Origin: Candidatus Gottesmanbacteria bacterium RIFCSPHIGHO2_01_FULL_40_15
GTDB taxonomy: Bacteria; Patescibacteriota; Microgenomatia; 2-02-FULL-39-11
DNA length: 49,500 nt
NCBI GenBank assembly: GCA_001779115.1
Contig: MFJF01000032.1
Location: forward strand, 1-49,500
Reading direction: 5' to 3'
Part shown: positions 1-32,094 of the stretch, in pieces
How the letters are laid out: every line of letters starts with the position of its first letter
Position numbering within the stretch: position 1 is the first letter of the stretch
Made by a program: the position numbers and the translations under genes
Notes under the pieces: generated by a model
The model's input: the letters and a program-made list of their open reading frames with translations, nothing else
Told to the model about the DNA's origin: nothing
The model's database searches: none

Positions 1-4866
<4,866 letters not shown>

Positions 4867-16002: not shown

Positions 16003-17871
16003 ATGGCAATGAATTATGAGTTTGGTAGGCATATTGCTGCTGAGCAACAAGCAGGAAATATACAAGGAGTAAATGCTCTCCGTAGGAGACAGCGTAGTTT
16101 TAATACTGCTATAAGACAAGGAACTTTCCGCGAACTACCTCTAGAGTCACCAGAAAGACGCGAACTAGTGATACGTATTGGAACAGCTATTGAAAAGGAA
16201 GTAGAAAGTTTACAAGAAGCAAGCCTATTAGGCTTACCCTTATATCATAAGGCGATTGTTGATTTGGACCATATATTACTTACAGATATCATTTCCAATG
16301 ATGAAGCGGTAGATATTATTTTGAGATCGGAAACAACTGGTGTTCTTGCTAAATCTCAACAATTATATGGACAATATGAAACTTTTCTTGAGGAATCTTT
16401 TGTTAATGTAATTTTACATAGTGGAGATATAGATTTACTGGATCCAAATAATATTACACAAAATTATTTAATGAGATACCGCAATCTTACTGCAAATGAA
16501 GTAGCACTCGCTGATATAAAACCAGAAGACCGCGTTTTATTTATTGGCAGTGGACCATTACCAATAAGTGCTATAGAAATAGCACGTCAAACTGGCTGTC
16601 AAATTGATTGTGTTGAACATTTTGCTGACAAAGCGGACACCTCACGAGCAGTTATTGATCATTTAGGTATGAGCGGACAAGTACATGTCTATACAGCAGA
16701 AGGGCAGGAATTCCCAGTTAGTAATTATTCTGTTATCCTTGTAGGAGTACTCGCGCAGCCAAAACAGGAAATTATTAATCATATTGAACAGAATACGCAA
16801 GAGGGGGTACGCGTCCTTGCAAGAACAACGGAGGGAATACGAGAGTTTATTTATCCCGAAGCAGAATTTACTACTTCACGTTTTATTCCTCGCGATATTA
16901 ACCATGCAGTAAAAGATCAAGCATTATCAACTATCCTTCTTAAAGATCGCTTAATTGATGCCTCTAAGTTAATACCAAAACAGCTTTCAGCACCACTTCG
17001 CATCATTGATGATGGAGAAGCATATGTTTCTAACATTACTGATCCACAAAACCATTGGCTATATTATGCGTTTGAAGGATTTAATGCCTTAAGTAAACAA
17101 GGTAAAAAAATAGGTCACTTCGTCTCGATCGCAACTGGGCCAGGAGTTGATGCAATTGGGGCTATGGAGATTCTTCACCCTGAAAGAATAACTGTTACTG
17201 ATCTCGTTCCAACAGCCATAGATCAAGCAAGAGAAAATATTTCACGTTATCAAGAACTAGGTGAAAGAACACCCGTTACTTATGTTGTTGGTAATCTTTG
17301 TGAGCCATTGGGAAATGATACCGCTGACGTAATTTATGCAAATTTACCTAATATTCCGATTCCTACTGAACTATTAGACCAACTGCTTGAAGGAATTACT
17401 GCTGCATCATACTTTGATCCAGAAACACTTCAGGGAGTTCCAGAGGACCTGGGGAAATATCTCTTATCATTACAATATGCTTTTCTTCAGCAAGCTAAAT
17501 CACATCTTACACCGGATGGACAAGTATTACTTAATCTTGGAGCTCGCATGCCAATAACAGCAATTAATGACTTGTTTGATAAAGCAGGTTATCAACAACC
17601 AGAAGTATTATCATTCGGTTTTAAATTACAAACAGAACCATTTGATACCATTCCAAATTATGCAGCACACGAAACTTCTGAAGTACAATTCGCCTATTAT
17701 CCTTATCGACAAGCGAAAGAAATTTTAACTGGGAAAAGCATTACAAATTTTAGCGAGCTTACAACACTGCTAGAGCAATTAAAATTAAGTGCAACTGATG
17801 CTTTTGAAAGGCTAAAACAAGGAGAACAATTGGGTCATCTAGTTACACTCCTCTCAGCAAAACCAAAATAA
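16003..17871 (+). CDS. Nicotianamine-synthase-like (SAM aminocarboxypropyl-transferase) domain fused to a second class-I methyltransferase-like domain
   Basis: N-terminal half: VLFIGSGPLPISAIEIA ... NYSVILVGVLAQPKQEIINHIEQNTQEGVRVLARTTEGIREFIYPE, compared with the plant NAS pattern FIGSGPLPLTS ... VVFLAALVGM..K..VI.HL...M.PGA.L..RSA.G.R.FLYP. C-terminal half: FVSIATGPGVDAIGAME...ITVTDL...ADVIYANLPNIP (Rossmann motif I plus an NPPY-like motif). Confidence 0.75.
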   Translation: MAMNYEFGRHIAAEQQAGNIQGVNALRRRQRSFNTAIRQGTFRELPLESPERRELVIRIGTAIEKEVESLQEASLLGLPLYHKAIVDLDHILLTDIISNDEAVDIILRSETTGVLAKSQQLYGQYETFLEESFVNVILHSGDIDLLDPNNITQNYLMRYRNLTANEVALADIKPEDRVLFIGSGPLPISAIEIARQTGCQIDCVEHFADKADTSRAVIDHLGMSGQVHVYTAEGQEFPVSNYSVILVGVLAQPKQEIINHIEQNTQEGVRVLARTTEGIREFIYPEAEFTTSRFIPRDINHAVKDQALSTILLKDRLIDASKLIPKQLSAPLRIIDDGEAYVSNITDPQNHWLYYAFEGFNALSKQGKKIGHFVSIATGPGVDAIGAMEILHPERITVTDLVPTAIDQARENISRYQELGERTPVTYVVGNLCEPLGNDTADVIYANLPNIPIPTELLDQLLEGITAASYFDPETLQGVPEDLGKYLLSLQYAFLQQAKSHLTPDGQVLLNLGARMPITAINDLFDKAGYQQPEVLSFGFKLQTEPFDTIPNYAAHETSEVQFAYYPYRQAKEILTGKSITNFSELTTLLEQLKLSATDAFERLKQGEQLGHLVTLLSAKPK

Positions 17872-20641: not shown

Positions 20642-20712
20642 GCCGCCCTAGCTTAGTGGAAAAGCGGCGGTTTTGTAAACCGTTGACCGGAGTTCGATTC
20701 TCCGGGGCGGCT
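20642..20712 (+). tRNA. tRNA-Thr (anticodon UGU)
   Basis: GCCGCCC TA GCTT AGTGGAA AAGC G GCGGT TTTGTAA ACCGT TGAC CGGAG TTCGATT CTCCG GGGCGGC T. 71 nt. Confidence 0.9.
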
Positions 20713-20725
20713 CAGTAAATTTCAA

Positions 20726-20808
20726 GCTGGGATACTCAAGCGGCCAACGAGGGCAGTCTGTAAAACTGCTGGCGCAAGCCTACGTAGGTTCGAATCCTGC
20801 TCCCAGCA
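20726..20808 (+). tRNA. tRNA-Tyr (anticodon GUA), long variable arm
   Basis: GCTGGGA TA CTCA AGCGGCCAA CGAG G GCAGT CTGTAAA ACTGC TGGCGCAAGCCTAC GTAGG TTCGAAT CCTGC TCCCAGC A. 83 nt; class II variable arm as expected for bacterial Tyr. Confidence 0.9.
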
Positions 20809-20885
20809 CCTTTGACTTAATTACCCGCTTAATCGAGTTTCCCATTTTTTTCCTTATGGATTTTCATTGACAGGTTAGGGATAAA

Positions 20886-22592
20886 TTGTCAAACTGGAAT
20901 TATCTGTCAGTGAAGAGACAATTATTCATATTATTTTTTGGCTTTCTTTTATACCTTTTATCCGGAAGCCTGGTGCTGGCACAAAATTTCCAATTCCAAA
21001 CAGAAAGCAATAAAGTTTTCCAGGGAAAACCGGAAGTTGATTCACTTTCAAAGAATAATAAGCTCAATCAAATAATTGTTACTTTTAAGAAAAAACCGAC
21101 GGCGGGGGAATTGATTAAACTTTCCCGAAAAAGCAAAAAAAGCAGACTAAAATATGCAATTACGGGTACGGATGCAATGGTATTTGAGGTTTCTGAAGGG
21201 GTTATTCAGGAGAGTTTGAATGAGCTTCGGGCAGATACAATAGTTGAGAGCGCTGTAGTAGATAAAGCACTAGATTTACTTTATATTCCCAATGATCCGG
21301 CTATCAAAGCAACTCCGGCTCCGGGAAAACCGATTCTGCAATGGAGCTTGTATAATCTCAATCTGGTCGGTTCAGGAAGAACTGCTTTTGACATATCCAA
21401 AGGTTCTTCAGGGGTCACAGTTGCCGTATTGGATTCCCAGGTTGATTCTAGTCATGAAGATCTTCAAGGAAAATTTTCCTCTTTAGTTGATTGTACTTCA
21501 GGGAGCTGTCAGACCGTTTCTTCGATGACTGCTAATCCTTCCAACCTTGATGAGAGTCATGGAACTCATGTGGCCGGAATTATCGGAGCGGCTACAAACA
21601 ATAATTTAGGTATTGCCAGTACAGGGTTTAATACCAATATGCTTTACATCAGAATCAGAGACCAGAACGGTAATATGCTGATCAGTTATTTTGTGAATGC
21701 GGTAAGATATGCAGCAGATCACAATGCCAAAATTATTAATATGAGCCTGGGTTCGCTGGCCGCCAATCTTGATGGTCCGATTATTGCCCAAATAAATGAT
21801 GCCGTAACTTATGCATGGAATAAGGGAGTGTTACTGGTAGCGGCGGCCGGAAACTGCGGTTGGAATGAGTCACATCATAAAGCAGCCGGGGATCCTTGTG
21901 ATATTTATGATGAGGCGGGTAATTTTGTCAGACATTCAGTTAACGAAAAATACTATCCGGCGGCATCTCCAAATATGTTAAATGTCGCAGCATTGGATGT
22001 TAATAACAACCTAGCGCCTTATTCCCAGCATAATGATCCGACTGATCCCCAAATAGGAAACTGGATAAGCATTTTGGCACCCGGAGGAAATTTTTCCACC
22101 AATTCCGATAAGGAATTCGGAATAGCTTCAACCTGGCCTTTAAACAGTTATTACTATAACCTTGGAACTTCAGCTGCTGCGCCTCATGTCTCGGGAATTG
22201 CAGCACTTATCTGGGCAGCCAAGCCGGTACTTACCAATTTACAAGTCAAATCAATAATAGAACAAACGGCTAACAAAAATATTGCGTCGGGAACAACCAA
22301 TAATGGCATGGTTGATGCTGTAAAGGCTTTAGACAGCCTGAATGTAACAATTACACCCGTGTCACCAACACCGACTGGTACTCCGGTATTATCGTCAACA
22401 CCGACGCTTACAGGTCAGGGAAAACCAGGGGATGCCAATGGGGATAACAAAGTGGACGGATTGGATTATGTTGTCTGGCTTCAAAATTACAATAAATCTG
22501 TCGGAAACGGCAGGTTAAGCGGGGATTTTAGCGGAAACGGATTTGTTGACGGTCTTGATTACGTTATTTGGTTGAATAATTATAACAAGTGA
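20886..22592 (+). CDS. Secreted subtilisin-like serine protease (peptidase S8) with I9-like propeptide and C-terminal dockerin module
   Basis: Catalytic triad contexts VAVLDSQVD, HGTHVAGIIGA and GTSAAAPHVSGIAAL. C-terminus: GDANGDNKVDGLDYVVWLQNY...GDFSGNGFVDGLDYVIWLNNY (duplicated dockerin Ca-binding segments, nt ~22422-22589). The likely true start is GTG 20910, which gives the signal peptide MKRQLFILFFGFLLYLLSGSLVLAQ. Confidence 0.9.
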   Translation: MSNWNYLSVKRQLFILFFGFLLYLLSGSLVLAQNFQFQTESNKVFQGKPEVDSLSKNNKLNQIIVTFKKKPTAGELIKLSRKSKKSRLKYAITGTDAMVFEVSEGVIQESLNELRADTIVESAVVDKALDLLYIPNDPAIKATPAPGKPILQWSLYNLNLVGSGRTAFDISKGSSGVTVAVLDSQVDSSHEDLQGKFSSLVDCTSGSCQTVSSMTANPSNLDESHGTHVAGIIGAATNNNLGIASTGFNTNMLYIRIRDQNGNMLISYFVNAVRYAADHNAKIINMSLGSLAANLDGPIIAQINDAVTYAWNKGVLLVAAAGNCGWNESHHKAAGDPCDIYDEAGNFVRHSVNEKYYPAASPNMLNVAALDVNNNLAPYSQHNDPTDPQIGNWISILAPGGNFSTNSDKEFGIASTWPLNSYYYNLGTSAAAPHVSGIAALIWAAKPVLTNLQVKSIIEQTANKNIASGTTNNGMVDAVKALDSLNVTITPVSPTPTGTPVLSSTPTLTGQGKPGDANGDNKVDGLDYVVWLQNYNKSVGNGRLSGDFSGNGFVDGLDYVIWLNNYNK

Positions 22593-22659
22593 AAAACGAG
22601 TTATTTTAACACTTGATATTATTGATAGTTTTCTGGGTATACTGGAATAAAATAAGTAT

Positions 22660-23655
22660 ATGTTAAAGACAAAATATCGCCGTTTATTGCTGATAATTGC
22701 AATATTTGTGGTACTTTTTTTATTTTTATTAAAATTAAATTCTACGAAAAAACGGGAAATAGACAAAATTGAAGAGGGGAGTCGTGAAGTAGCCGTTCAA
22801 TTGAATCCAAGAGAAGGAGAAAAAGTAATCGGAGAAAGTTTTGAAGTTATGATATCACTTTCTAAAAGAACAGATAGAGATATAAAAATCAGCGGAGCCC
22901 AGGCAGAGCTTTTGGCCAGTGATGGTTTGAAATTTGATTCGGCAGAATGTTTAGAACCTTTTAATGGACTGCCGTATGTAAAAATTAACGGCAGGATAAT
23001 AACTTTAGTATGTTCCATTTCCATAGACAGCGAAGCCGTAATTATCAGTGATGATGATATAAATTTCGGCAGGGTAAATCTGACAGCAGCCGGAGGGGGT
23101 AAAGCCAGTCAGGAATCATTATCATTTAACAGGGTTAGGGTTACCGAGTCCGGCATAGAGGGAAAAGCACCGGATTTGTCTTTATTGGGTGGTAAAGCCT
23201 TATTCGTGATAAATAATACCGATACAATTAACTTTTATTTTGAACCTAGTGAGGTTATTAATCCACATAATGTCAGGATAAAAATAATAGCCGACTCAAA
23301 TGATAAAAATGTCGCTTTTATTAAAACTGTCGTCAAATTTGATCCTTCAAAAATAAAATTGGAGGGAGAAATTGAAACTTCCACATATTTTTCAACTGTT
23401 GTTAAAAAGCCGGGCATTGATGAAATTAATAAATCGGGCATTGCAGCATTTGTCATTGCTTCATCTCCGACAGACAGTCAACCATCAGGAGTATTTGAAG
23501 TTGCCAATTTCCCGATTTCAACAATTCCGGATGAAAACGGATATGATACCGGAATTGATTTTGCCGTTTCCGAAATGCAAATTGTATCAGGGGACGTGAA
23601 GGAGTTAGCTGTAATTTCTGAGGATGCCATAGTCAGTATAAATAGGGACTTGTAA
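22660..23655 (+). CDS. Signal-anchored protein with two cohesin-like modules (type A + type B)
   Basis: N-terminal TM. Type A: VIGESFEVMISLSKRTDRDIKISGAQAELLASDGLKFDSAECLEPFNGLPYVKINGRIITLVCSIS. Type B: VRIKIIADSNDKNVAFIKTVVKFDPSKIKLEGEI...AAFVIASSPTDSQPSGVFEVANFPIS. Confidence 0.7.
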   Translation: MLKTKYRRLLLIIAIFVVLFLFLLKLNSTKKREIDKIEEGSREVAVQLNPREGEKVIGESFEVMISLSKRTDRDIKISGAQAELLASDGLKFDSAECLEPFNGLPYVKINGRIITLVCSISIDSEAVIISDDDINFGRVNLTAAGGGKASQESLSFNRVRVTESGIEGKAPDLSLLGGKALFVINNTDTINFYFEPSEVINPHNVRIKIIADSNDKNVAFIKTVVKFDPSKIKLEGEIETSTYFSTVVKKPGIDEINKSGIAAFVIASSPTDSQPSGVFEVANFPISTIPDENGYDTGIDFAVSEMQIVSGDVKELAVISEDAIVSINRDL

Positions 23656-23703
23656 AATATTTTTTTTTATACCTATAATGGATTAATAATAAGTAATGTT
23701 TAA

Positions 23704-24237
23704 ATGACAATATCCAGAAAAGAATTTTACAGTCTGATCCTCATACTTTTTTTAGTCCTTTTTCTTCCGGTTGTCATTTATTTTCTGGGTGCAAGAAAGG
23801 ATATAAGGCCAAAAGCAGTTCTTGCGGGAGCAGCTAATTTCCGTTTAAATGCCGATACGACAAGCGTTTCGGTCGGTCAGAGAGTGAACGTATTGGTATC
23901 AACACAAATAACTGATACTAATGTGCGTGTGTCTGGAGCAGACTTCACTCTTTTGTATGACAGGGATAAGCTAAATTTGGTAAGTCTGAATCCCGTTCTG
24001 GGAAACAATTTTACAGAGACAGTTTTGATCGATGACCAAAATTTACCTTACATTGGTGAAGGAGATGTTTTTAGTTATTTACGACTATCAGTCGTTGCGA
24101 AGAAGAATGCAGCAGATTTGGCCGGAGGAACTGTCAGCCTGGCTAACGTAACTTTTGAAGCTAAAAACGGGGGACAAGGGATAATTAAATTTCCGAATGA
24201 AAATAGTGAAATGCAGGTAGTTGGAATAATACTTTAA
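23704..24237 (+). CDS. Signal-anchored single cohesin-domain protein
   Basis: SVGQRVNVLVSTQITDTNVRVSGADFTLLYDRDKLNLVSL...GTVSLANVTFEAKNGGQGIIKF follows the classical cohesin pattern (PGD.V.V.V......I.G.DF.L.YD...L). Confidence 0.75.
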   Translation: MTISRKEFYSLILILFLVLFLPVVIYFLGARKDIRPKAVLAGAANFRLNADTTSVSVGQRVNVLVSTQITDTNVRVSGADFTLLYDRDKLNLVSLNPVLGNNFTETVLIDDQNLPYIGEGDVFSYLRLSVVAKKNAADLAGGTVSLANVTFEAKNGGQGIIKFPNENSEMQVVGIIL

Positions 24238-24368
24238 ATATAATAATGATATAAATTAAATAAAACTATAACAAATTATTTATTAATATAATTTAATATA
24301 AAACTAGCGGGCAAAACAATACAGGAAAAGGATTACCTGTAGATTATATATTTTATAAAAAAAATAAA

Positions 24369-27206
24369 GTGCCTGTTAGGAATATTTTCAGTTTAATCAA
24401 GAAGGGATTTAAGGGTCAAAGAGGAGAGATTGCCACCGTTGTTGCCCTTATCGGACTGGGTATTGTTACCGCCGGAATTTTTGTCGCCAACCAACTAGTG
24501 AAACAGGGGCCAAGAGATATTCCTCAAGCAGCTTCAACCGGATCATGGGTAGATCCGGCAACAGGAGCAGTTTGTAATTCTACAAATTATTTCGTTTACT
24601 ACTCAGGAGGCGGTTGTACCGGAACAGCCGGTTACCGGACGGAATCAATCAGTCCTCAGGGACCGTGTTCAACCAACGGATCCGGAGTCTGTTTTAAAGT
24701 CGGCGGATCTGCCGTTTCTTTTTCGGCCATATCTACATGGTCGTATAGTACCAAGAGCTGTACGGCAAAAAGCGCGACAGTTCCTGCTGCCATGTACAGT
24801 AAAATTATCCAATGTCAATGGAGGGCAGCCAATGCCACTTTTACTCCAACCAAAACTCCGGTTCCGACCAGTCCGCCGAAAACCCCGACTAAGACACCAA
24901 CCAAAACCCCAACCAAAACACCGACACCGATAACTTCTTCAATGTCAGTTACTCTTTCGGCTATTCCTTCAACAGGATCTGTTCCTCTTAACAATGTAGA
25001 CCTTAAGGCTGTAGTTACAGTTTGGGGAGCAGACAGCGGAAGTTTCTATTACCAGTTTGACTGTACCAATAACGGAACTTATGAGAAAAATGTTACCAGT
25101 TCTCAAGCTACCTATACGGCGGTTGATGTATGTGATTACACAAGTTCCGGAACTAAGACGGCCAAAGTCAAGGTAACCGCAGGTTCACAAACTACTACAG
25201 ATACGGTTTCTGTTACGGTCGGCAGCGCAACTACTCCTTCCAAAACCCCTACAAAGACACCGACCGGAACAGGGCCTTCCAAAACTCCGACCAAAACACC
25301 AACAAAATCACCGACACCATATACCGGTGCCAAATCACCAACTCCTTCCAAAACTCCGACGAAAACACCGACGGGCACCGGTCCGTCCAAAACACCTACC
25401 AAAACACCGACCAAATCACCGACTCCGCCTAAGTCGCCTACACCACAACAATCAACTGGCGGAAAAATTTTCCCATTGGAAGATACTCATGTGCGATCGG
25501 GCAGCCCAAACAGTAATTACTGTCAGGATCAGCTTCAGGTTGACGGAGACCCGGTGAAGGTTACTTATATCAAGTTTGATTTAAGAGATTTAAATACTAC
25601 CGTCAATACAGCCAAACTCTGGATGAGGATTACTGATTCTTCATCGGCAACCTTCAGAATCAAGGCAGTTTCCAGTAACAGCTGGACAGAGTGCAGTATG
25701 ACCTATAATAACAGGCCGTCGTTGGGAGATCAGAAAGCGACATTTACTGACGCCACTGCCGGCACCTGGAAATCTGTCGATATTACATCACATGTGAAAA
25801 ATAAAGCAGGTTCGATAATGACCATTGCCGTTGACTCTTCGGGAAGCAACGGGGTTGATTTTTATTCCCGGGAAAATTCAACATATGCGCCTTATATAGA
25901 GATCAATGGTGGAACTGTAGCAGTAACACCAACTAAAACGCCGACGAAAACACCAACAGGTATTGTGCCTATTACTCCAACCGAACCGGTAATTACACCC
26001 ACATCGGGTCAGCCTCCGACACCGCTGCCTGATCAGGTCGGGGTATTTTTCTCACCCCAGGTTGCCGCGGTTCCGCCTGTTACCAATATGAGGATAATGA
26101 TGAATTCCGGAGGAAGATCGGTTGCTTTTGCCAGAGTAGTATTTAATTTTGATCAATCCCTTATAAATTTAAAAAGCGAAATAACGGTAATCGGTCAGAT
26201 GTCGACAATTGTTGAAAAAACAACTATGAATCAGGCTAATTCTTCCGGAAGAGTTGTGATTGTAGCTGCTTCATCACCCGGAGATATTCCGCCCAACGGT
26301 ATTTTTGAATTTGCATCATTTGATATTGATTCCAATACTACTTTAACTGATGCTACGGTAGAGATAATTTTTGATACTTTTGACAGTCAGATTGTGGATA
26401 AACTAGGTCCTGAAATTCCGGCAACATATACAAATGCGTTTATTAATGTGTTTGGTATAACCGAACCTACTGTGACTTCCATAGTTACCCCGACGATTAC
26501 TCCAGGAGGTCCGACTTTGACTTTACCGCCATATGAAACCGGAGTATTTTTCTCACCCCAGGTTGCCGCGGTTCCGCCTGTTACCAATATGAGGATAATG
26601 ATGAATTCCGGAGGAAGATCGGTTGCTTTTGCCAGAATAGTTTTTACATTTGATACAAGTAAAATCAGGATGGCCAGTGAGATAACGACAACAGGTCAAA
26701 TGTCGACGACTGTGGAAAAGACCAGCATGAATAATGCCAACACAACAGGCAGAGCAACAATTGTTATTGCCGCTTCTCCAAGCGATAATCCACCTAACGG
26801 AATTTTTGAATTCGCCTCGTTTGATATAGATGCCAATACTGGTGAATCAGACATCCAGACTTACCTTAATTTTGATCAGGCTGACAGTCAACTTGTTGAT
26901 GCGGCAGGACCGGAAATACCGACCCAATATACCGACGCCGTTATAACGGTTCACGGATCGGCAATATCGGGTACACCTCCTGTTTCTGAGTGTCCAAGAG
27001 GACCGGAAGGTAATTTGGATTGTGACACAATGGGTTGCGTAGATACGGCTGATTTTGAACTGTTCCGACAGGCATACGGAAAAACTGTTGGTGAGATAAG
27101 CGTTCCTGCCGGCCAGCATACTCCTGATTTGGTGACGGATTCATTTAATATGATCGATACAGCTGATTATGAAATTTTGAGAGCCAATTTCGGCTCTTGC
27201 CAGTAA
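24369..27206 (+). CDS. Large secreted modular protein: N-terminal Cys-rich region, Pro/Thr linkers, Ig-like region, DNRLRE-like domain, two type-B cohesin-like modules and a C-terminal Cys-containing dockerin-like module
   Basis: GTG start plus TM. Linkers of (TPTK)n. The DNRLRE-like pattern is FPLEDTHVRSGSPNSNY...VTYIKFDLRDL...AKLWMRI...SNSWTECSMTYNNRP (nt ~25459-25915). Modules at ~26036-26460 and ~26537-26950. The C-terminal 71 aa are CPRGPEGNLDCDTMGCVDTADFELFRQAYG...DLVTDSFNMIDTADYEILRANFGSCQ. Confidence 0.75.
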   Translation: MPVRNIFSLIKKGFKGQRGEIATVVALIGLGIVTAGIFVANQLVKQGPRDIPQAASTGSWVDPATGAVCNSTNYFVYYSGGGCTGTAGYRTESISPQGPCSTNGSGVCFKVGGSAVSFSAISTWSYSTKSCTAKSATVPAAMYSKIIQCQWRAANATFTPTKTPVPTSPPKTPTKTPTKTPTKTPTPITSSMSVTLSAIPSTGSVPLNNVDLKAVVTVWGADSGSFYYQFDCTNNGTYEKNVTSSQATYTAVDVCDYTSSGTKTAKVKVTAGSQTTTDTVSVTVGSATTPSKTPTKTPTGTGPSKTPTKTPTKSPTPYTGAKSPTPSKTPTKTPTGTGPSKTPTKTPTKSPTPPKSPTPQQSTGGKIFPLEDTHVRSGSPNSNYCQDQLQVDGDPVKVTYIKFDLRDLNTTVNTAKLWMRITDSSSATFRIKAVSSNSWTECSMTYNNRPSLGDQKATFTDATAGTWKSVDITSHVKNKAGSIMTIAVDSSGSNGVDFYSRENSTYAPYIEINGGTVAVTPTKTPTKTPTGIVPITPTEPVITPTSGQPPTPLPDQVGVFFSPQVAAVPPVTNMRIMMNSGGRSVAFARVVFNFDQSLINLKSEITVIGQMSTIVEKTTMNQANSSGRVVIVAASSPGDIPPNGIFEFASFDIDSNTTLTDATVEIIFDTFDSQIVDKLGPEIPATYTNAFINVFGITEPTVTSIVTPTITPGGPTLTLPPYETGVFFSPQVAAVPPVTNMRIMMNSGGRSVAFARIVFTFDTSKIRMASEITTTGQMSTTVEKTSMNNANTTGRATIVIAASPSDNPPNGIFEFASFDIDANTGESDIQTYLNFDQADSQLVDAAGPEIPTQYTDAVITVHGSAISGTPPVSECPRGPEGNLDCDTMGCVDTADFELFRQAYGKTVGEISVPAGQHTPDLVTDSFNMIDTADYEILRANFGSCQ
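25236..25427 (+). repeat. Tandem duplication of an 84-nt Pro/Thr/Lys linker unit (PSKTPTKTPTGTGPSKTPTKTPTKSPTP), 108-nt period
   Basis: Copies at 25236-25319 and 25344-25427 differ only at synonymous third positions. A related (TPTK)n tract lies at ~24842-24930. Confidence 0.8.
26043..26636 (+). repeat. Intragenic module duplication (501-nt offset) with a 93-nt perfectly identical core
   Basis: 26043-26135 and 26544-26636 are identical (gtatttttctcaccccaggttgccgcggttccgcctgttaccaatatgaggataatgatgaattccggaggaagatcggttgcttttgccaga). The flanking parts of the two modules are clearly diverged. Confidence 0.9.
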
Positions 27207-27231
27207 AATTATTAAAGGAGGTCAGGTAAAC

Positions 27232-28023
27232 ATGTTAAAAAAATTTAAAAATAGTGAGAAAAACAAATTTTTTCTTATTATTGCACTATTGGTTTTTATA
27301 CCTCTGGGAATTTATGCTACCGGTTTGGTTCAGGATATCAGAAACCGGGCAGCCGGAACTAATGAAGTCGGACTGAGGTTTTCACCAATGTCCGGAATTT
27401 ACAAACCTGGTGATGTTATTGATCTGAAGGTAACTTTACATAAGCTGGTATCAAGGAGCATAAATGTGTCCGGTGCCCAGGCGGTATTTACCGTTAGCGA
27501 TAAATTTAACGTTGGAGAAGTAAATTGTCAGTCACCCTTTGACGGCCTTCCTTTTGTAAAAGTAAACGGTCAGACAGTTACTGTCTTTTGTGCCATTAAT
27601 ACTTTTACTTCACCCGTACCGGTGACTTCATCAGATTTGCCGTTTGCCTCCGTTTCTTTGACCGTTTCCCAGCAGGCACTTGAGGGACAGGCGCTGATTG
27701 AGTTTGTTTCCACCAGAGTAACTGAATCCGGTATATCGGGTCAGGCGCCTGATGTATCGACTGCCGGAACATCGGCTACTTTCACAATTGTAATCCCTCC
27801 AACCTGCCCAAGGGGTGACATGGGTAATCTGGATTGTGATAATTTCGGATGTATTGATACAGCTGATTTTGAGCTGTTCCGTCAAGCTTACGGAAAGACT
27901 GTCGGTGAAATCACTGTACCTACCGGTCAGCACACTCCTGACTTGGTGACGGATTCATTTAATATGATCGATACGGCAGATTATGAAATATTAAGGAGTA
28001 ATTTCGGTACTTGCAGTAATTGA
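27232..28023 (+). CDS. Signal-anchored protein with a type-A cohesin-like module and a Cys-containing dockerin-like C-terminus
   Basis: RFSPMSGIYKPGDVIDLKVTLHKLVSRSINVSGAQAVFTVSDKFNVGEVNCQSPFDGLPFVKVNGQTVTVFCAI. The C-terminal 72 aa (27805-28020) are paralogous to 26991-27203. Confidence 0.75.
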   Translation: MLKKFKNSEKNKFFLIIALLVFIPLGIYATGLVQDIRNRAAGTNEVGLRFSPMSGIYKPGDVIDLKVTLHKLVSRSINVSGAQAVFTVSDKFNVGEVNCQSPFDGLPFVKVNGQTVTVFCAINTFTSPVPVTSSDLPFASVSLTVSQQALEGQALIEFVSTRVTESGISGQAPDVSTAGTSATFTIVIPPTCPRGDMGNLDCDNFGCIDTADFELFRQAYGKTVGEITVPTGQHTPDLVTDSFNMIDTADYEILRSNFGTCSN

Positions 28024-28088
28024 AGTACAAATTAAAAAAATAACAAATAAAAGATACAAACTGATAACTAATATCTAGGTGGGGATTA

Positions 28089-29885
28089 TTGTATATTAGA
28101 TATACAGGCGAATTTATGAATAATATTTTGAAGGACAAAAAGCTAAGGAAAAAGCTGACGATTACCGGGCTTTTGTTAGTTTTACCTCTGATAGTTCTCG
28201 GAGCTTTACAGGTTCAAAATCTGGTCAAAAGAGCGGCCGGATCCAATGAAGTCGGGATGCGTTTTACACCCTCATCTGGAGTATTAACTCCGGGACAACA
28301 GATAACCGTTAAAGTTGCTATGCATAAATTGGCATTAAGAACCATTAATGTTTCCGGAGCCCAGGCTGTTATTGATGTCAGCAGTAAATTTGTTATTGAT
28401 TCGGCTGATTGTGAAGCCCCTTTTAACGGATTGCCCTTTACTAAAATAAACGGCCAATCGGTAACAATAATGTGTGCCATTGCTACTACTGCCAATCCGG
28501 TTCCGGTAAATTCTTCCGACCTTGTTTTTGCCCAACTTAATTTGACTGTTCTAAATTCAGCCGGAGAAGGAAATGCCGAAATCGGTTTTACTTCAACCAG
28601 AGTTACTGAGGCTGGTATTCCCGGACAGGCTCCTGATGTCTCGACAGCAGGAACAGGAGCCACATTCAGTATTTCCTCCAGCGGCGAGATTACTCCGACA
28701 CAGCCGGATACGGGTGATGTTACTCTGTCATTTTCTCCGTCAAGCGTCAATCTGCCCCCTGCATCGAATGTGAAAATAATGGCTGACAGCGGTGGCAAAT
28801 TCATAGCTTTTGTAAGAGCGGTTATTACTTTCGATAATTCCAAAGTAAATCTTAACAGCGAAATTACAACCAACCCGCAACTTTCAACAATTGTTGAAAA
28901 AACCGGCAGAGTTAATGCAAACCAGTTTGGAAGAGCCAATATAGTAATTGCCGCAGCTCCGACTGATAGTCAACCTTCAGGAGTATTTGAGTTGGCTTCA
29001 TTTTCCTTAACCAATATTTCAACAACCGCAGATTCGACCCAGATGAGTTTTGATATTTCCGATATGCAGATCGTAGACGGTACCGGCCAGGAATTATCAA
29101 TCGGCAGCAGTGTGTTAAGTATTACCATAAACGGAAGCAATGTTACTCCATCACCTGGAGGGGAGTTTGAGATACCGATCGGAGAGAAAGACCAGTTGGT
29201 TATTGATATCGGAGGAGAGGGTCCAACGCCTACCGGAGGGTTGCCGACAGATGTACCCGGAAATGTTCCCCAGATTACTTTCTCGGCAGTTCTGGCCCAT
29301 ACCCAGAGTAATCCCGATATGTATTTCCGCTTAAGAGTTAAAGATGAACTTTATTTTCTTGATAATCCGGGAGTTGTTCTTAATCCCTCCTGTACTACAC
29401 CGGGTCCGGGTGACAAAGATTTCTATATACCGATGCGCGCCCAGGGGACTATATACAAGCCGGTTCCCTCAATCAATATTCCGGTGCCAAGCGGAGTCAA
29501 TGTCGCCGATGTGACAGCTGACGGCTGGGTGATTCTCAACGGTGTTTCTCAAAACAGATATTATTCTCTTCTTCTTAAAGCTCCGCTTTTCCGGGGATCC
29601 GAAATGGCCGAGCATGTATTTTTAAAAGGCGGACAAAAGCCGGAGCAGGTGTTTTCTTGGATCAATAATCCTTTAGAACCCGGAGATTTGCCAAATCCCA
29701 ATAACCAGATGCTTCAGGATTGTACCGTTAATTCAATTGACATCTCTTTGATTGTTGCCCGGATCGGCAGCACCAATACACCGGATCTGTCCGTCGGGGA
29801 TGTCAATTTTGACAATATTGTTAACGGAAATGACGTATCAAAAGTAGTCAATACTTTATCGACAAAACCGGATGATGATCTATAA
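28089..29885 (+). CDS. Signal-anchored protein: type-A cohesin-like module, type-B cohesin-like module, unknown ~200-aa domain, C-terminal dockerin-like module
   Basis: RFTPSSGVLTPGQQITVKVAMHKLALRTINVSGAQAVIDVSSKF...; VKIMADSGGKFIAFVRAVITFDNSKVNLNSEI...IAAAPTDSQPSGVFELASFSL; C-terminus NSIDISLIVARIG...GDVNFDNIVNGNDVSKVVNTL. The likely true start is ATG 28116 (MNNILKDKKLRKK plus TM). Confidence 0.75.
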   Translation: MYIRYTGEFMNNILKDKKLRKKLTITGLLLVLPLIVLGALQVQNLVKRAAGSNEVGMRFTPSSGVLTPGQQITVKVAMHKLALRTINVSGAQAVIDVSSKFVIDSADCEAPFNGLPFTKINGQSVTIMCAIATTANPVPVNSSDLVFAQLNLTVLNSAGEGNAEIGFTSTRVTEAGIPGQAPDVSTAGTGATFSISSSGEITPTQPDTGDVTLSFSPSSVNLPPASNVKIMADSGGKFIAFVRAVITFDNSKVNLNSEITTNPQLSTIVEKTGRVNANQFGRANIVIAAAPTDSQPSGVFELASFSLTNISTTADSTQMSFDISDMQIVDGTGQELSIGSSVLSITINGSNVTPSPGGEFEIPIGEKDQLVIDIGGEGPTPTGGLPTDVPGNVPQITFSAVLAHTQSNPDMYFRLRVKDELYFLDNPGVVLNPSCTTPGPGDKDFYIPMRAQGTIYKPVPSINIPVPSGVNVADVTADGWVILNGVSQNRYYSLLLKAPLFRGSEMAEHVFLKGGQKPEQVFSWINNPLEPGDLPNPNNQMLQDCTVNSIDISLIVARIGSTNTPDLSVGDVNFDNIVNGNDVSKVVNTLSTKPDDDL

Positions 29886-29958
29886 ACGGGTACATTTAGT
29901 ATGCGGTTTTTGGGAGTTTTACATTTTTTAGAAAAATTAACCGGAAGGAATAACCTGT

Positions 29959-30549
29959 ATGGGTGAAAAGCAAAAAATATTTATTGTGCTTCTTATTCTG
30001 GCGGTTCTTATAAGCGGCATCATTTATATCAGAAAAAGAAACAGTTCCGTTAAGATTATTCCGGAAGTTCAAATACAGGAGAAAGAAGAAGCATTTGAGG
30101 ATGAAGAAATAAAAGGAGGATCAATCTTTTTAAGTACCGATACGCCCCTGATTAAAGTCGGGAGTGAAGCAACTGTTTCTGTAAATTTCGGGGCTTACGG
30201 TAAAAACATTTTCGGTTCCGATGTAATTCTTCTTTTTGATCCTGAATATTTATCTACTGATGAGAATATGATTGAACCGGGGGATTTTTTTACATCCATT
30301 CCCAGAAAAACAGTTGATACTGACAACGGAATAATCAAAATAACGGCAATAGAGGGGCGGGATGAGGTTCTAACAGAGGAAGTATCAAATGCATTTAGCA
30401 TCAGGTTCCGGGGACTAAAACCGGGTTCCTCGGTTATTTCTTTCAGCTTCATTAAAAACGAGACAAACACAACCACTTTAGTTGAAAGGGGCAGCAGTCA
30501 AAACTTGCTGGACGAAGTACAGTCAGAGACAATTGATATTGAGGAATAA
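29959..30549 (+). CDS. Signal-anchored single cohesin-domain protein
   Basis: TM at the N-terminus. KVGSEATVSVNFGAYGKNIFGSDVILLFDPEYLS...FSIRFRGLKPGSSVISF. Confidence 0.7.
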   Translation: MGEKQKIFIVLLILAVLISGIIYIRKRNSSVKIIPEVQIQEKEEAFEDEEIKGGSIFLSTDTPLIKVGSEATVSVNFGAYGKNIFGSDVILLFDPEYLSTDENMIEPGDFFTSIPRKTVDTDNGIIKITAIEGRDEVLTEEVSNAFSIRFRGLKPGSSVISFSFIKNETNTTTLVERGSSQNLLDEVQSETIDIEE

Positions 30550-30558
30550 TAATACTTC

Positions 30559-31401
30559 ATGAGAAAAATATATACCGGAATAATATTTTCATTCCTAATA
30601 TTTTTATTTTCCGCAGTTAGCGCGGGAAGCGTTTACGCCCAATATTTTAATCTCGAGCTTGAAAATCCCGGACAGTCAATAAATGTAAATGATATTTTTA
30701 ACGTAAAAATAATGATAAATACCCAAGGGGTAGAAGCCATCAACGGGGATGCTTTACTTCAGTTTGATTCGGGAAAAATAAGCATATTATCGGCACAAAG
30801 TGAAAATTTTTTCACTTTCGCTTTTTCCACCTTCATTTCAGGCTCCAATAATAAATATCTGGCTTCAAGTTGGGAGGAGTCAATCGCGCATGCCAAATCA
30901 TCCTCAAGCGAAACGCCGTTTTATACATTGTCGGTTAAAGCAGTCGGTTCAGGACAAACACAGTTAACATTTATCTGCCAGAGCGGATCTGAGGCCGATA
31001 CCAATATTAACCGATCAGCAGATTCAGCCGATGTGGTTAACTGTCCGCTGCAACCGTTAAACCTTAATATCGGTTCTACCAGCGGGAATGGACCAACGAT
31101 AACTCCTCCGGATACTAATCCGACTGATTCGGGATATTTGAGTCCGACACCTGATTACGGACAGTATCCCACGCCGACATTTACTCCGTCTCCGACTCCG
31201 GAACCAACGGAAACGCCGACACCAACACCTGAACCTCCGACTGAAACTCCGACACCAACTGATTTATCAGATTTATCAGCGGATGAAGAGTCAACAATTT
31301 CGGCGGAAGATTTACCCAGAGCTGGAGTATTTGGGTTAACCTTAGGTGTTTTAAGTTTGGGAACTATCTTGACCGCGATAGGTGTTTTGTTTATGCTCTA
31401 A
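30559..31401 (+). CDS. Cell-wall-anchoring cohesin protein: signal peptide, cohesin module, Pro/Thr/Glu linker, LPRAG sorting-signal-like C-terminus
   Basis: Signal peptide ending VYAQ. NVNDIFNVKIMINTQGVEAINGDALLQFDSGKISILS. TPEPTETPTPTPEPPTETPTPT. The terminal LPRAG (31312-31326) is followed by a 24-aa hydrophobic tail, GVFGLTLGVLSLGTILTAIGVLFML. Confidence 0.7.
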   Translation: MRKIYTGIIFSFLIFLFSAVSAGSVYAQYFNLELENPGQSINVNDIFNVKIMINTQGVEAINGDALLQFDSGKISILSAQSENFFTFAFSTFISGSNNKYLASSWEESIAHAKSSSSETPFYTLSVKAVGSGQTQLTFICQSGSEADTNINRSADSADVVNCPLQPLNLNIGSTSGNGPTITPPDTNPTDSGYLSPTPDYGQYPTPTFTPSPTPEPTETPTPTPEPPTETPTPTDLSDLSADEESTISAEDLPRAGVFGLTLGVLSLGTILTAIGVLFML

Positions 31402-31428
31402 CTGAGAAGAATTTAATAAAATTTAATT

Positions 31429-32094
31429 ATGTCATTGGGATCTTTTAAAAAACAGGTTAAATACATTTTACTGATCGCAGTAAGCCTTCTTATTTTTGTA
31501 GCAACTGTTATTTTGGGAAAGCAGGCTTCCGTTTATTTTGCCAGTGCATCCGAATGTCCGGCTAAGAATATAAGAACAGAAAGTGTCGGACCGAACAGTT
31601 CGGTAATCGCCTGGGATACCGATGATCGAACCCAAGGGAGAGTTGAATATGGAACCAATGCGGTTTCCCTGACTTTTACATCTCCTGAAGCGCAATCCAA
31701 AACCAATCATACCGTTCCTTTAACACTTCTGACCCCCAATACCGTTTATTATTACCTGGTGGCAGTCGGGGAGACCAGATGCGATTCAACCGGCCAGAAA
31801 TGTGAAGGTGACTGTGTTCCATACAGTTTTACAACTTCATCTCTGACAAAACAAGGTGATAGTGAAGAGGAAGATGTTACTCCGACGCAAAGAACTATGC
31901 CTTCGGTAACGGTACCGGCTGCTTCGGCTCAACCCACCAGCTCTTTATCACTTTTTTGTAAAGCGGTTCAGGCTAATATCGGTAAGAATGAAACGGTTGA
32001 GTCGGAATGGTCGTCATTGAAAACTTATGACATCGACAGCAACGGAATAATCAACGGCCTTGATGTCATCAAGTGCCAGAAGAGCGGGAAATAA
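31429..32094 (+). CDS. Signal-anchored FN3/purple-acid-phosphatase-N-like domain protein with a single dockerin-like segment at the C-terminus
   Basis: SVGPNSSVIAWDTDDRTQGRVEYGTN...HTVPLTLLTPNTVYYYLV (FN3-type pattern). C-terminus YDIDSNGIINGLDVIKCQ (EF-hand-like dockerin segment, ~32026-32091). Confidence 0.6.
   Translation: MSLGSFKKQVKYILLIAVSLLIFVATVILGKQASVYFASASECPAKNIRTESVGPNSSVIAWDTDDRTQGRVEYGTNAVSLTFTSPEAQSKTNHTVPLTLLTPNTVYYYLVAVGETRCDSTGQKCEGDCVPYSFTTSSLTKQGDSEEEDVTPTQRTMPSVTVPAASAQPTSSLSLFCKAVQANIGKNETVESEWSSLKTYDIDSNGIINGLDVIKCQKSGK

Follow-up and report, generated by a model that had tools for sequence, protein, structure and literature searches.

Cellulosomes assembled through adaptor and anchoring scaffoldins, namely CipA-SdbA/OlpB of Clostridium thermocellum and ScaA-ScaB-ScaC of Acetivibrio cellulolyticus, are among the known systems closest to the locus analysed here, and in cellulosomes type II cohesins bind X-dockerin dyads. 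Ruminococcus flavefaciens ScaE (PDB 2zf9), a cell-surface anchoring scaffoldin, is attached by sortase. Cohesin-dockerin modules also serve outside cellulose degradation, as in cohesin 2xdh of Archaeoglobus fulgidus, the GH84/GH33 cohesins of Clostridium perfringens and the amylosome of Ruminococcus bromii, which uses the same principle with other cargo (PMC4611034); all of these are scattered modules or glycoside-hydrolase-based. Among CPR bacteria, the Saccharibacterium Southlakia epibionticum has an essential cell-envelope protein with a dockerin domain, SEML1_0315 (PMC10633639), and the main text of that paper does not mention a cohesin.

We analysed a window of 49,500 nt (the whole stretch of DNA under study, contig MFJF01000032.1) from Candidatus Gottesmanbacteria, a CPR bacterium, as an earlier reading of the sequence alone (the sequence-only reading) had supposed. 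The window contains a nine-gene locus (g1 to g9) that probably encodes a non-cellulosomal, multi-specificity cohesin-dockerin surface assembly, a variant of the known systems, and forms an operon-like, vertically inherited cluster. Like the cellulosomes above, it gathers several cohesin and several dockerin types in one gene cluster, combines cohesins with a dockerin in some proteins, as adaptors do, and places an X-domain plus dockerin beside single-cohesin anchoring proteins. Unlike them, it contains no dockerin-bearing glycoside hydrolase, cellulose-binding CBM3 or SLH anchor, its cargo consists of a subtilisin, a CBM96 and an FN3-like domain, each component has an N-terminal hydrophobic segment of its own, and the organism is a small-genome CPR bacterium rather than a cellulolytic Firmicute. 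The locus shares with the non-cellulosomal examples the use of these modules outside cellulose degradation, and differs in being a whole conserved cluster in which five cohesin types are present and glycoside hydrolases are absent; with SEML1_0315, a single protein from a different CPR class, it shares a dockerin domain on a CPR envelope protein. Full-text literature searches for cohesins or dockerins of CPR bacteria turned up no cluster of this kind, in line with the earlier suggestion that such a locus was undescribed.

Results

Translation of the window reproduced the coordinates of nine ORFs between positions 20886 and 32094, all on the plus strand, separated by gaps of 9-131 nt and flanked on both sides by strand switches (Table 1). 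No cohesin or dockerin module was detected elsewhere in the window by HMM scan. A single N-terminal hydrophobic 19-mer (KD >= 2.1) was found in each of the nine proteins, g8 alone having a second, C-terminal one; the nine products are thus exported or membrane-tethered, as expected from the proposed run of consecutive same-strand genes with signal peptides or anchors.

Table 1 Genes and modules of the g1-g9 locus (coordinates refer to the window).
Feature	Position (nt)	Position (aa)	Strand	Content or evidence
g1	20886..22592		+	Signal peptide, subtilase S8, duplicated canonical dockerin
g1 subtilase S8	21408-22295	175-470	+	Pfam Peptidase_S8 (PF00082) 1.5e-48
g1 dockerin, canonical, duplicated	22404-22589	507-568	+	Dockerin_1 23.1 bits vs cutoff 22.9
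g2	22660..23655		+	N-terminal anchor, cohesins A + B, no dockerin
g2 cohesin type A	22777-23235		+	HMM mapping; g2 vs g6 BLASTP 5.95e-69
g2 cohesin type B	23221-23652		+	HMM mapping; g2 vs g6 BLASTP 5.95e-69
g3	23704..24237		+	N-terminal anchor, one cohesin
g3 cohesin	23782-24234		+	Pfam Cohesin 24.7 bits vs cutoff 24.1
g4	24369..27206		+	N-terminal anchor, Cys-rich region, Pro/Thr linkers, CBM96, two cohesins B, DocC
g4 CBM96	25470-25907	368-513	+	Pfam CBM96 E=5.7e-26
g4 cohesin B1	26031-26462		+	Type B
g4 cohesin B2	26532-26963		+	Type B; AF2 pLDDT 96-98
g4 four-Cys dockerin DocC	26982-27203		+	Profile comparison
g5	27232..28023		+	N-terminal hydrophobic segment, cohesin A, DocC
g5 cohesin type A	27355-27813		+	BLASTP, HMM mapping
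g5 DocC	27796-28020		+	Profile comparison
g6	28089..29885		+	N-terminal hydrophobic segment, cohesins A + B, X domain, dockerin Doc6
g6 cohesin A	28239-28697		+	AF2 pLDDT about 80-92
g6 cohesin B	28713-29141		+	AF2 pLDDT about 77-92
g6 X domain, beta-rich	29241-29693		+	AF2 pLDDT 55-83
g6 dockerin Doc6	29658-29882		+	Dockerin_1 22.2 bits; homologs with PF00404
g7	29959..30549		+	N-terminal anchor, one cohesin
g7 cohesin	30082-30546		+	Family profile vs PDB; PF00963 in family
g8	30559..31401		+	Signal peptide, cohesin, Pro/Thr linker, LPRAG + hydrophobic C-terminus
g8 cohesin	30640-31083		+	hhalign to g7; PF00963 in family
g8 LPRAG + 24-residue hydrophobic C-terminus	31312-31398		+	Translation
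g9	31429..32094		+	N-terminal hydrophobic segment, FN3-like domain, EF-hand/dockerin-like tail
g9 FN3-like domain	31567-31776		+	Pfam Pur_ac_phosph_N 1.3e-7
g9 tail, lone EF-hand/dockerin-like repeat between two invariant Cys	31912-32091		+	Weak PF00404

The product of g1, the only enzyme of the locus and its only dockerin-bearing enzyme, is a predicted subtilase (Peptidase S8) that appears active; the Asp, His and Ser motifs of its triad are present in the translation (VLDS, HGTHVAG and GTSAAAPHV, with AAAGN also present). The description of the locus as headed by a protease fits the gene order only; two related loci start with a 238-aa dockerin protein lacking the S8 domain. In agreement with the sequence-only reading, no glycoside hydrolase or lyase was found in the locus or in ten related loci. 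A cellulosome proper was considered and rejected, dockerin-bearing glycoside hydrolases being absent from all of them. The further statement of the sequence-only reading that the locus lacked a carbohydrate-binding module did not hold, as the very domain of g4 that it had called DNRLRE-like is a CBM96. CBM96 and the DNRLRE-like domain are the same, and the first member of the CBM96 family has alginate rather than cellulose as its ligand (PMC9971899). Protein g4 joins this domain to two cohesins and one dockerin, and may thereby resemble a scaffoldin with a substrate-targeting CBM. A pair of GH130 genes is found 5-9 kb upstream of the locus, both devoid of dockerin and cohesin modules in the HMM scan.

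Internal BLASTP and HMM mapping recovered the ten cohesin-like modules expected and their three proposed classes, type A in g2, g5 and g6, type B in g2, g4 (twice) and g6, and a "classical" type in g3, g7 and g8. Detection by the Pfam cohesin model (PF00963) was uneven. At the curated threshold g3 passed, while g7, g8 and the type B copies of the window had no match, and the isolated type A module of g6 reached 17.6 bits. At the family level, matches were obtained for 11 of 19 type A members (best 2.8e-9), 6 of 10 g7 members (best 4.6e-11) and 5 of 10 g8 members (best 1.6e-4), but for none of the 21 type B members; the g8 homolog P0200 also carries PF00963. The best PDB matches of the g7 family profile were type II cohesins (3l8q, E=3.6e-5), and hhalign linked g7 to g8 with 97.2% probability and g3 to either with 95.1%; these sequence relationships support the assignment of g3, g7 and g8 as cohesins.

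Structure prediction, also proposed beforehand, covered modules of g4 and g6. The AF2 model of g4 residues 720-945 (pLDDT 96-98 over B2) had cohesins as all of its best 50 Foldseek matches in the PDB, with E-values down to 4.9e-10, TM scores of 0.77-0.78 and rmsd of 2.4-2.7 Å. Type B is thus predicted to adopt the nine-stranded flattened beta-sandwich (jelly-roll) of cohesins despite the silence of Pfam. The best match of the g6 model was the ScaA cohesin dyad 3l8q (1.5e-11), a stronger score than those of B alone against single type II cohesins (about 1e-5 to 1e-6), indicating that A adds to the fold match. Non-cellulosomal structures, namely 2xdh, 2jh2, 2vo8 and 2w1n, were also among the matches of the locus models. 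Taken together, these comparisons support all ten modules as cohesins, which by sequence fall into five types (A, B, g3, g7 and g8).

Of the five dockerin-like modules of at least three types that had been proposed, four are good dockerin candidates of three types, canonical in g1, four-Cys in g4 and g5, and X-domain-linked in g6, the assignments in g1 and g6 being solid. The g1 module, with two canonical DxNxDxxxDxxD-type loops in the alignment, lies above the PF00404 threshold; that of g6, with a canonical loop 2 and an atypical, insertion-containing loop 1, falls slightly under it, five of its homologs carrying a precomputed PF00404 match. The four-Cys family (DocC) escaped the same model in all of its 15 members. 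Profile comparison nevertheless supports a dockerin assignment for the g4 and g5 copies, DocC aligning to the g1-type dockerin with 97.6% probability (hhalign) and having the dockerin 2y3n_B as best PDB match (E=0.0024). Its loop 1, canonical in most homologs, contains Cys residues at positions 2 and 7, and its loop 2 is degenerate; the g4 model shows two helices at low confidence. Confidence was low for the dockerin regions of both AF2 models (pLDDT below 50 in g6 and 42-72 in g4). The fifth module, at the end of g9, amounts to no more than one EF-hand-like repeat, as much EF-hand as dockerin: 9 of 10 family members match PF00404 weakly (best 0.014), the best PDB matches are calmodulin EF-hands (3e-5), and one loop is present. 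Truncated and clasped dockerins have been described (PMC12270676, PMC3821032); unlike the stacking-contact clasps of R. flavefaciens, those of the locus dockerins would be disulfides of invariant Cys pairs.

The LPRAG sorting-type signal attributed to g8 was found together with its hydrophobic stretch, an LPXTG-like arrangement kept as [LM]P[RKQN][AVST]G in the majority of some 25 homologs (LPRTG in L013), with departures to LKRAG in L010 and GPVAG in L012. With one cohesin, a linker and this signal, g8 resembles ScaE and is a candidate anchoring cohesin protein. Unlike ScaE, its motif is LPxAG and no basic tail follows, g8 proteins ending in ...FML or ...IIL; the NCBIfam LPXTG model TIGR01167 had no match to g8 at E <= 1. 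The suggested sortase search, a weak test, returned none across the window, the 10 kb that follow it and the related loci (about 300 kb of related DNA). Sortase has been reported as common to near-ubiquitous in Microgenomates.

Ten further genomes of the Gottesmanbacteria type share the gene order, so that the genes are not unlinked in relatives, the outcome that would have refuted the sequence-only reading. The g6-g9 run, comprising the X-dockerin protein, two single-cohesin proteins and the FN3 protein, is the core and occurs in 11 of 11 genomes. Six genomes have contigs long enough to include the first gene as well, and these keep the order through to g9. On the downstream side, the chromosomal flanks agree with those of L001. 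Beyond this group, metagenomes contain at least about 660 clusters (50% identity) that are defined by type B and lack annotation. Among 50 homologs and 135 further representatives, A and B cohesins are shuffled combinatorially with four dockerin types, the commonest architecture being that of g5, with one or two cohesins between an N-terminal anchor and a dockerin. Of the 135 distant type B representatives, 48 carry a dockerin and 72 have no recognisable partner module. In one distant locus, type B modules share a protein with Pfam-recognised Cohesin and Dockerin_1 domains, and two single-cohesin genes follow. A distant relative encodes a metallophosphatase with a dockerin and a malectin domain.

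Discussion

The gene content suggests an unreported self-assembling surface complex in which a protease and binding domains would take the place of cellulases. After export, dockerins would plug into cognate cohesins in a Ca2+-dependent manner and build a branched complex at the cell surface. Protein g8 would hold it, through its Pro/Thr stalk and an LPxAG-type C-terminal signal either processed by sortase or simply embedded in the membrane, together with g2, g3 and g7 through their N-terminal anchors. The complex would display the active-looking subtilisin, the glycan-binding CBM96 and the FN3-like domain. Judging from co-occurrence, the X-Doc6 dyad of g6 may pair with the always-adjacent g7 and g8 cohesins, which resemble the type II cohesins that bind such dyads. 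The g3 cohesin may receive the dockerin of the first gene, and cohesins of type A or B may receive the four-Cys and Doc17-type dockerins. The role of the complex would be adhesion, proteolysis or both at the surface of the cell, perhaps directed at a host cell. Points in favour of this assembly are the module identities, the N-terminal segment on every protein, the operon-like spacing, the kept gene order, the distant locus with type B beside Pfam-recognised modules, the confinement of the modules to the locus within the window, and the exchange of A and B among dockerin types, as in scaffoldin families. A DsbD-thioredoxin fusion, a protein of disulfide handling, is also encoded on the same contig and fits the invariant Cys pairs of the type A and DocC modules, the g9 tail and g8. 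We counted against the assembly the low confidence of the modelled dockerins, the failure of DocC in Pfam and its degenerate loop 2, the EF-hand likeness of the g9 tail, the shortfalls of the g8 signal and the excess of cohesins over dockerins in the locus (ten versus about five, roughly twofold). Uncleaved N-terminal segments would by themselves tether each protein and leave a scaffold unneeded, which also counts against it.

In an explanation that we consider unlikely, the folds are those of cohesins and dockerins but do not pair with one another: the beta-sandwiches would be stalks or adhesins for host-surface ligands, the dockerin-like tails Ca2+-stabilised end caps, and each protein a lone membrane-tethered adhesin or enzyme. 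The separate N-terminal hydrophobic segment of every protein, the partnerless majority of distant type B proteins and the additional matches of the multi-domain g6 model to generic beta-sandwich adhesins (AgI/II, integrins) are in line with it, as is the essential Saccharibacterium protein, for which a dockerin and no cohesin is mentioned (PMC10633639). It sits poorly with the tight co-occurrence of cohesins and dockerins in kept order throughout the 11 genomes, the dockerins on 48 distant type B proteins, and the best 50 matches of the B-only model, which were cohesins exclusively, with no generic Ig folds. In characterised systems, moreover, mutual binding is the one known job of the two families.

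A small cellulosome-like polysaccharide degrader appears very unlikely. Here CBM96, whose founding member binds alginate, would target an acidic glycan, and dockerin-bearing carbohydrate-active enzymes from elsewhere in the genome would fill the spare sockets left by the surplus of cohesins; the upstream GH130 genes and the dockerin-malectin metallophosphatase could be read in the same sense. However, the GH130 genes and the rest of the window have no module to dock with, the eleven loci lack glycoside hydrolases and lyases, and the one enzyme of the locus is a protease. A sortase-assembled pilus or S-layer-type structure, with the beta-sandwich proteins as pilins or lattice subunits rather than scaffoldins, is scarcely credible: it would suit the row of many small beta-sandwich proteins, the g8 signal and the frequency of sortase in Microgenomates, but the sorting-type signal is confined to one of nine proteins, no sortase gene was found in or adjoining the locus, no pilin motif was seen in its proteins, and the type B fold matches cohesins, not Cna-B or pilin.

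Within the cohesin-dockerin assembly that we favor, a bolder and rather improbable version is that the anchor-cohesin-dockerin proteins are self-complementary blocks, polymerising head-to-tail into surface chains or a lattice by cohesin-dockerin binding. If so, Microgenomates/CPR bacteria would have a lineage-specific, disulfide-hardened "Lego" envelope or tether holding protease and glycan-binding modules against the host cell, and the Pfam-invisible type B would define a large hidden cohesin family dedicated to building blocks.

Organization and conservation of the nine-gene locus

The nine plus-strand genes (g1 to g9) are separated by gaps of 67, 48, 131, 25, 65, 73, 9 and 27 nt, with no clear internal terminator between them on the plus strand; a promoter scan returned many consensus matches and nothing usable. 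A YceG gene on the minus strand precedes the tRNA pair upstream of the locus, and a minus-strand methyltransferase gene lies downstream of g9. Within the N-terminal ~45 residues of each product lies a single hydrophobic 19-mer, so the row of nine exported or anchored proteins proposed in the sequence-only reading is borne out by the ORF map and these N-terminal segments; only g8 carries a second such 19-mer, at its extreme C-terminus. HMM scanning of the window detected no cohesin or dockerin modules outside the locus. A short motif conserved right after the N-terminal hydrophobic segment of proteins with type A cohesins could serve signal peptidase, or some other protease, as a processing site, and cleavage of the N-terminal segments decides whether the proteins are released or tethered.

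Homologs of g6 were found only in Candidatus Gottesmanbacteria (CPR, Microgenomates) or on unnamed metagenome contigs. The scan for related loci, limited to one genome per species and with a 10-sequence alignment as query, yielded 12 loci, all from Gottesmanbacteria or Patescibacteria bins save two labelled 'uncultured Gammaproteobacteria'. These two MAGs (L009, CAYIFB010000025.1; L010, CAZFNL010000090.1) contain a Gottesmanbacteria-type locus with the same gene order, and their labels are probably wrong. Mapping the g1 to g9 products to every ORF in the related loci, with modules annotated by HMMs built here, revealed that the order g6-g7-g8-g9 is kept in 11/11 genomes (the window and ten others), and the full order, from a dockerin-bearing first gene through the cohesin proteins to g9, in the six genomes whose contigs extend that far. 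The genes are thus linked in relatives, so the refuting condition named in the sequence-only reading, a loss of linkage in related genomes, does not arise. The downstream flanks in the related locus L001 are the same as in the window (HD_4 RelA/SpoT-like gene, P-type ATPase and M50 peptidase). Judging from the kept gene order and these common flanks, the cluster is inherited vertically within the Gottesmanbacteria lineage; a mobile element or recent transfer was rejected given the flanks common to L001 and a GC content that departs only slightly from that of the surroundings.

Coordinates and supporting evidence for features of the window and of related contigs (window positions unless a contig is named)
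Feature	Location	Remarks
g1 to g9	20886-32094	plus strand; starts 20886, 22660, 23704, 24369, 27232, 28089, 29959, 30559, 31429
tRNA Thr and tRNA Tyr	20642-20810	upstream of g1
Motif [DE][IL]R.[RK]A[AQ]G[ST].E[VI]	g5 residues 34-46 (~27331-27369); g6 residues 43-55 (~28215-28253)	homologs in alignment A1
Cohesin type g3	g3	passes PF00963, 24.7 bits, cutoff 24.1
Cohesin type g7	g7	PF00963 match in 6/10 members, best 4.6e-11
Cohesin type g8	g8	PF00963 match in 5/10 members
Cohesin type A	g2, g5, g6	PF00963 match in 11/19 members, best 2.8e-9
Cohesin type B	g2, g4 (two copies), g6	PF00963 match in 0/21 members
S8 proteases with mid-protein DocC-like dockerin	L013:4582-7140; L009:1494-3644	related loci
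S8 protease with Doc17-type match	L003:195-2015	C-terminal match; ORF may be fusion or frameshift
DsbD_TM and thioredoxin/AhpC-like fusion	L016:12610-14385	591 aa; same contig, ~2.5 kb past the window end
Type B, PA14, Cohesin and Dockerin_1 in one protein	L018:3952-7427	distant locus, GCA_034680565.1; PA14, Cohesin and Dockerin_1 recognised by Pfam; the next two genes each encode one cohesin
Pur_ac_phosph_N, Metallophos, Dockerin_1 and Malectin protein	L018:12964-15763	GCA_034680565.1; near the type B gene
Collagen-like repeat gene	1-~3500	minus strand; runs off the window
Collagen-like repeat gene, related contig	L017:12381-17498	1705 aa
Tandem GH130 genes	11869-13743; 13769-15712	plus strand
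Nicotianamine-synthase-like fusion	16003-17871	plus strand

Cohesin modules

The module classes drawn up from the sequence alone were reproduced by internal BLASTP, and the estimate of about ten cohesin-like modules of several types held, with ten modules recognized by Pfam, profile comparison or AF2 models searched with Foldseek. In hhalign comparisons the classical types, named after their genes, were related with probabilities of 97.2% (g7 and g8) and 95.1% (g3 with either g7 or g8); types A and B were further off (A with g8, 82%; A with g7, 70%; B with g8, 68%; A with B, 49%), and controls with the dockerin and the X domain, a domain of g6 ahead of its dockerin, stayed below 1%. The PDB matches of the g7 family profile were almost exclusively cohesins (best 3l8q at 3.6e-5). 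The g8 profile matched no PDB sequence, and PF00963 is present in a 51%-identical relative. For type A, the PDB search gave insignificant cohesin matches only (E about 0.5); the g6 copy alone scored 0.0047 against PF00963, and its pLDDT in the AF2 model of g6 was about 80-92.

Searching PDB sequences with the type B profile gave no match. Its AF2 model (g4 residues 720-945, built on 36 sequences) reached a pLDDT of 96-98, and cohesins accounted for 50/50 of its top Foldseek matches in the PDB, with the non-cellulosomal Archaeoglobus cohesin 2xdh among the fold matches. The model was closest to type I cohesins (E to 4.9e-10, target-normalised TM 0.77-0.78, rmsd 2.4-2.7 Å); against single type II cohesins, type B alone reached about 1e-5 to 1e-6 only. 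The best match of the full g6 model was the cohesin dyad 3l8q (1.5e-11 over 365 columns), stronger than that of type B alone, so type A contributes to it. By sequence comparison and predicted structure, all ten modules are of the cohesin family or cohesin fold, and type B is, on the strength of its model, a cohesin subfamily invisible to Pfam.

Dockerin-like modules

Five dockerin-like modules had been proposed; those of g1 and g6 and the Cys-containing form at the tails of g4 and g5 (DocC) stood, but the g9 tail holds only one repeat. The g1 dockerin, with two canonical Ca2+ loops, passes PF00404 (23.1 bits, cutoff 22.9). That of g6 (Doc6), with a canonical second loop and an insertion in the first, falls slightly short of the threshold at 22.2 bits, and a precomputed match exists in five homologs. 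DocC has four invariant cysteines, and no member matches PF00404; hhalign aligned it end to end with the g1-type dockerin (probability 97.6%) and also related it to Doc17, a dockerin type of the relatives (94.5%). In the PDB, the DocC profile matched dockerin 2y3n_B of Cel48 best (E=0.0024), in an alignment that spans both repeats, and the AF2 model contains two helices at low confidence. This four-cysteine variant may be of interest for designer cellulosomes and as an orthogonal protein-assembly part. The g9 tail, with one canonical loop (DIDSNGIINGLD) and two invariant cysteines, matched PF00404 weakly in 9/10 members and calmodulin EF-hands in the PDB at 3e-5, and is putatively a single dockerin-like or EF-hand repeat. 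That the modules of the locus are cohesins and dockerins can be stated with high confidence.

In the related loci L013 and L009 the S8 protease has a mid-protein DocC-like dockerin and no canonical C-terminal one, and the L003 protease has a Doc17-type match; one dockerin type thus seems to have replaced another on the protease in the course of evolution.

Accessory domains and the g8 C-terminal signal

The first gene, g1, encodes an S8 subtilase (Pfam, 1.5e-48) with intact catalytic motifs. The sequence-only reading had recognized a DNRLRE-like domain in g4 and held that the locus lacked any carbohydrate-binding module. Residues 368-513 of g4 match CBM96 (Pfam, 5.7e-26), and because the founding CBM96 is ~30% identical to DNRLRE-domain proteins (PMC9971899), the right domain had been seen, but the absence of a CBM was an error. 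Assignment to the DNRLRE model NF033679 was discarded, as this NCBIfam model was not reported for g4 at E <= 1 and CBM96 accounts for the domain. A PDB profile search with the Cys-rich N-terminal region of g4 was uninformative. The X domain of g6 was beta-rich in the AF2 model, with moderate confidence, and a profile search found no sequence relative in the PDB. An FN3-like Pur_ac_phosph_N domain (Pfam) was identified in g9.

The sorting signal proposed for g8 was upheld in part: the C-terminus has LPRAG followed by 24 hydrophobic residues, but no basic tail, and the NCBIfam LPXTG model was not reported at E <= 1. The pattern [LM]P[RKQN][AVST]G is conserved in most g8 homologs, with departures in L010 (LKRAG) and L012 (GPVAG). 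No ORF of the window or related loci matched an S. aureus SrtA query, a weak test, and no sortase was found in a further 10 kb of the same contig. A sortase family is reported to be near-ubiquitous in Microgenomates (PMC6744442).

Proposed assembly and relation to known systems

Cohesin-dockerin pairing is a well-understood and experimentally tractable interaction module. The analysis establishes the parts, their export signals, their clustering and their conservation; the assembly is inferred. In the proposed complex, dockerins and cohesins would join via Ca2+ at the cell surface; we rate such assembly as somewhat better than an even prospect. The X-Doc6 module of g6, with its invariant neighbours g7 and g8, would be analogous to the cellulosomal anchoring pair of type II cohesin and X-dockerin, and the best sequence matches of g7 are type II cohesins. 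The likeliest anchor would be g8, which has a Pro/Thr stalk and a signal at its C-terminus. Across the related loci, the first-gene dockerin is always found alongside a g3-type cohesin. DocC and Doc17 would, by elimination only, be left for type A and B cohesins; three related loci have DocC with one A module and zero B modules. Type A, DocC, g8 and the g9 tail each contain paired invariant cysteines, which suggests that disulfides stabilise them outside the cell. A DsbD-thioredoxin fusion encoded on the same contig is a candidate handler of these invariant extracytoplasmic cysteines, and disulfide machinery is reported to be widespread in CPR (PMC6744442). The output would be a subtilisin on display together with glycan-binding and FN3-like modules.

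On paper the locus would operate as do its nearest counterparts: scaffoldin clusters of cellulosomes, the ScaE anchor of R. flavefaciens, the amylosome, and the cohesins that Archaeoglobus and C. perfringens have outside cellulosomes. Unlike the cellulosome, it is without dockerin-bearing glycoside hydrolases, the defining feature of the former. To our knowledge, almost nothing is known of how CPR bacteria build their surface and attach to partners, and their envelope proteins are mostly annotated as hypothetical. If the proposal is true, a Microgenomates lineage adopted cohesin-dockerin pairing for a conserved, cellulase-free surface system of multiple components. With about 15 defined modules, pairing is open to direct in vitro testing, no cultivation being needed. 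In agreement with the earlier view that such a system had not been described, our full-text search of the literature on cohesins and dockerins in CPR groups found no cohesin-dockerin cluster for CPR, Patescibacteria, Microgenomates or Gottesmanbacteria. The nearest report concerns a Saccharibacterium in which a single protein with a dockerin domain is essential (PMC10633639).

Wider distribution of type B cohesins

The 50 homologs from the initial two homology searches freely recombine cohesins of types A and B with DocC, Doc17, Doc6 and Doc1 (g1-type) tails. A search of 1.84 billion representatives with the type B profile yielded 660 at E <= 1e-3, of which 525 reached E <= 1e-10. This cohesin subfamily, which Pfam misses, numbers hundreds in metagenomes. 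In a further set of 135 representatives, an N-terminal hydrophobic segment is present in 115, a recognisable dockerin in 48 and another cohesin type in 22; all named entries among the distant proteins are 'hypothetical protein'. The giant relative P0119 (2276 aa, JGI/IMG metagenome) strings together nine cohesin-like modules and ends in a dockerin, a layout that resembles a true multi-cohesin scaffoldin. The Pur_ac_phosph_N protein encoded near a type B gene in the distant locus L018 suggests that g9 may be related to a dockerin-bearing phosphatase and reduced in comparison with it.

Other features of the window

The first ~3.5 kb are GC-rich (GC 0.51) with strong AT skew; rRNA was dismissed as the source, Rfam being empty there and the sequence being a 9-nt-periodic collagen-like Gly-X-Y repeat gene. 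Its counterpart on the related contig L017 has no recorded Pfam match. The two tandem GH130 genes (mannooligosaccharide phosphorylase family) each have an N-terminal extension of ~300 aa, and HMM scanning found no dockerin or cohesin in them. Downstream of these lies a fusion, unusual for a small CPR genome, of a nicotianamine-synthase-like domain and a second methyltransferase-like region.
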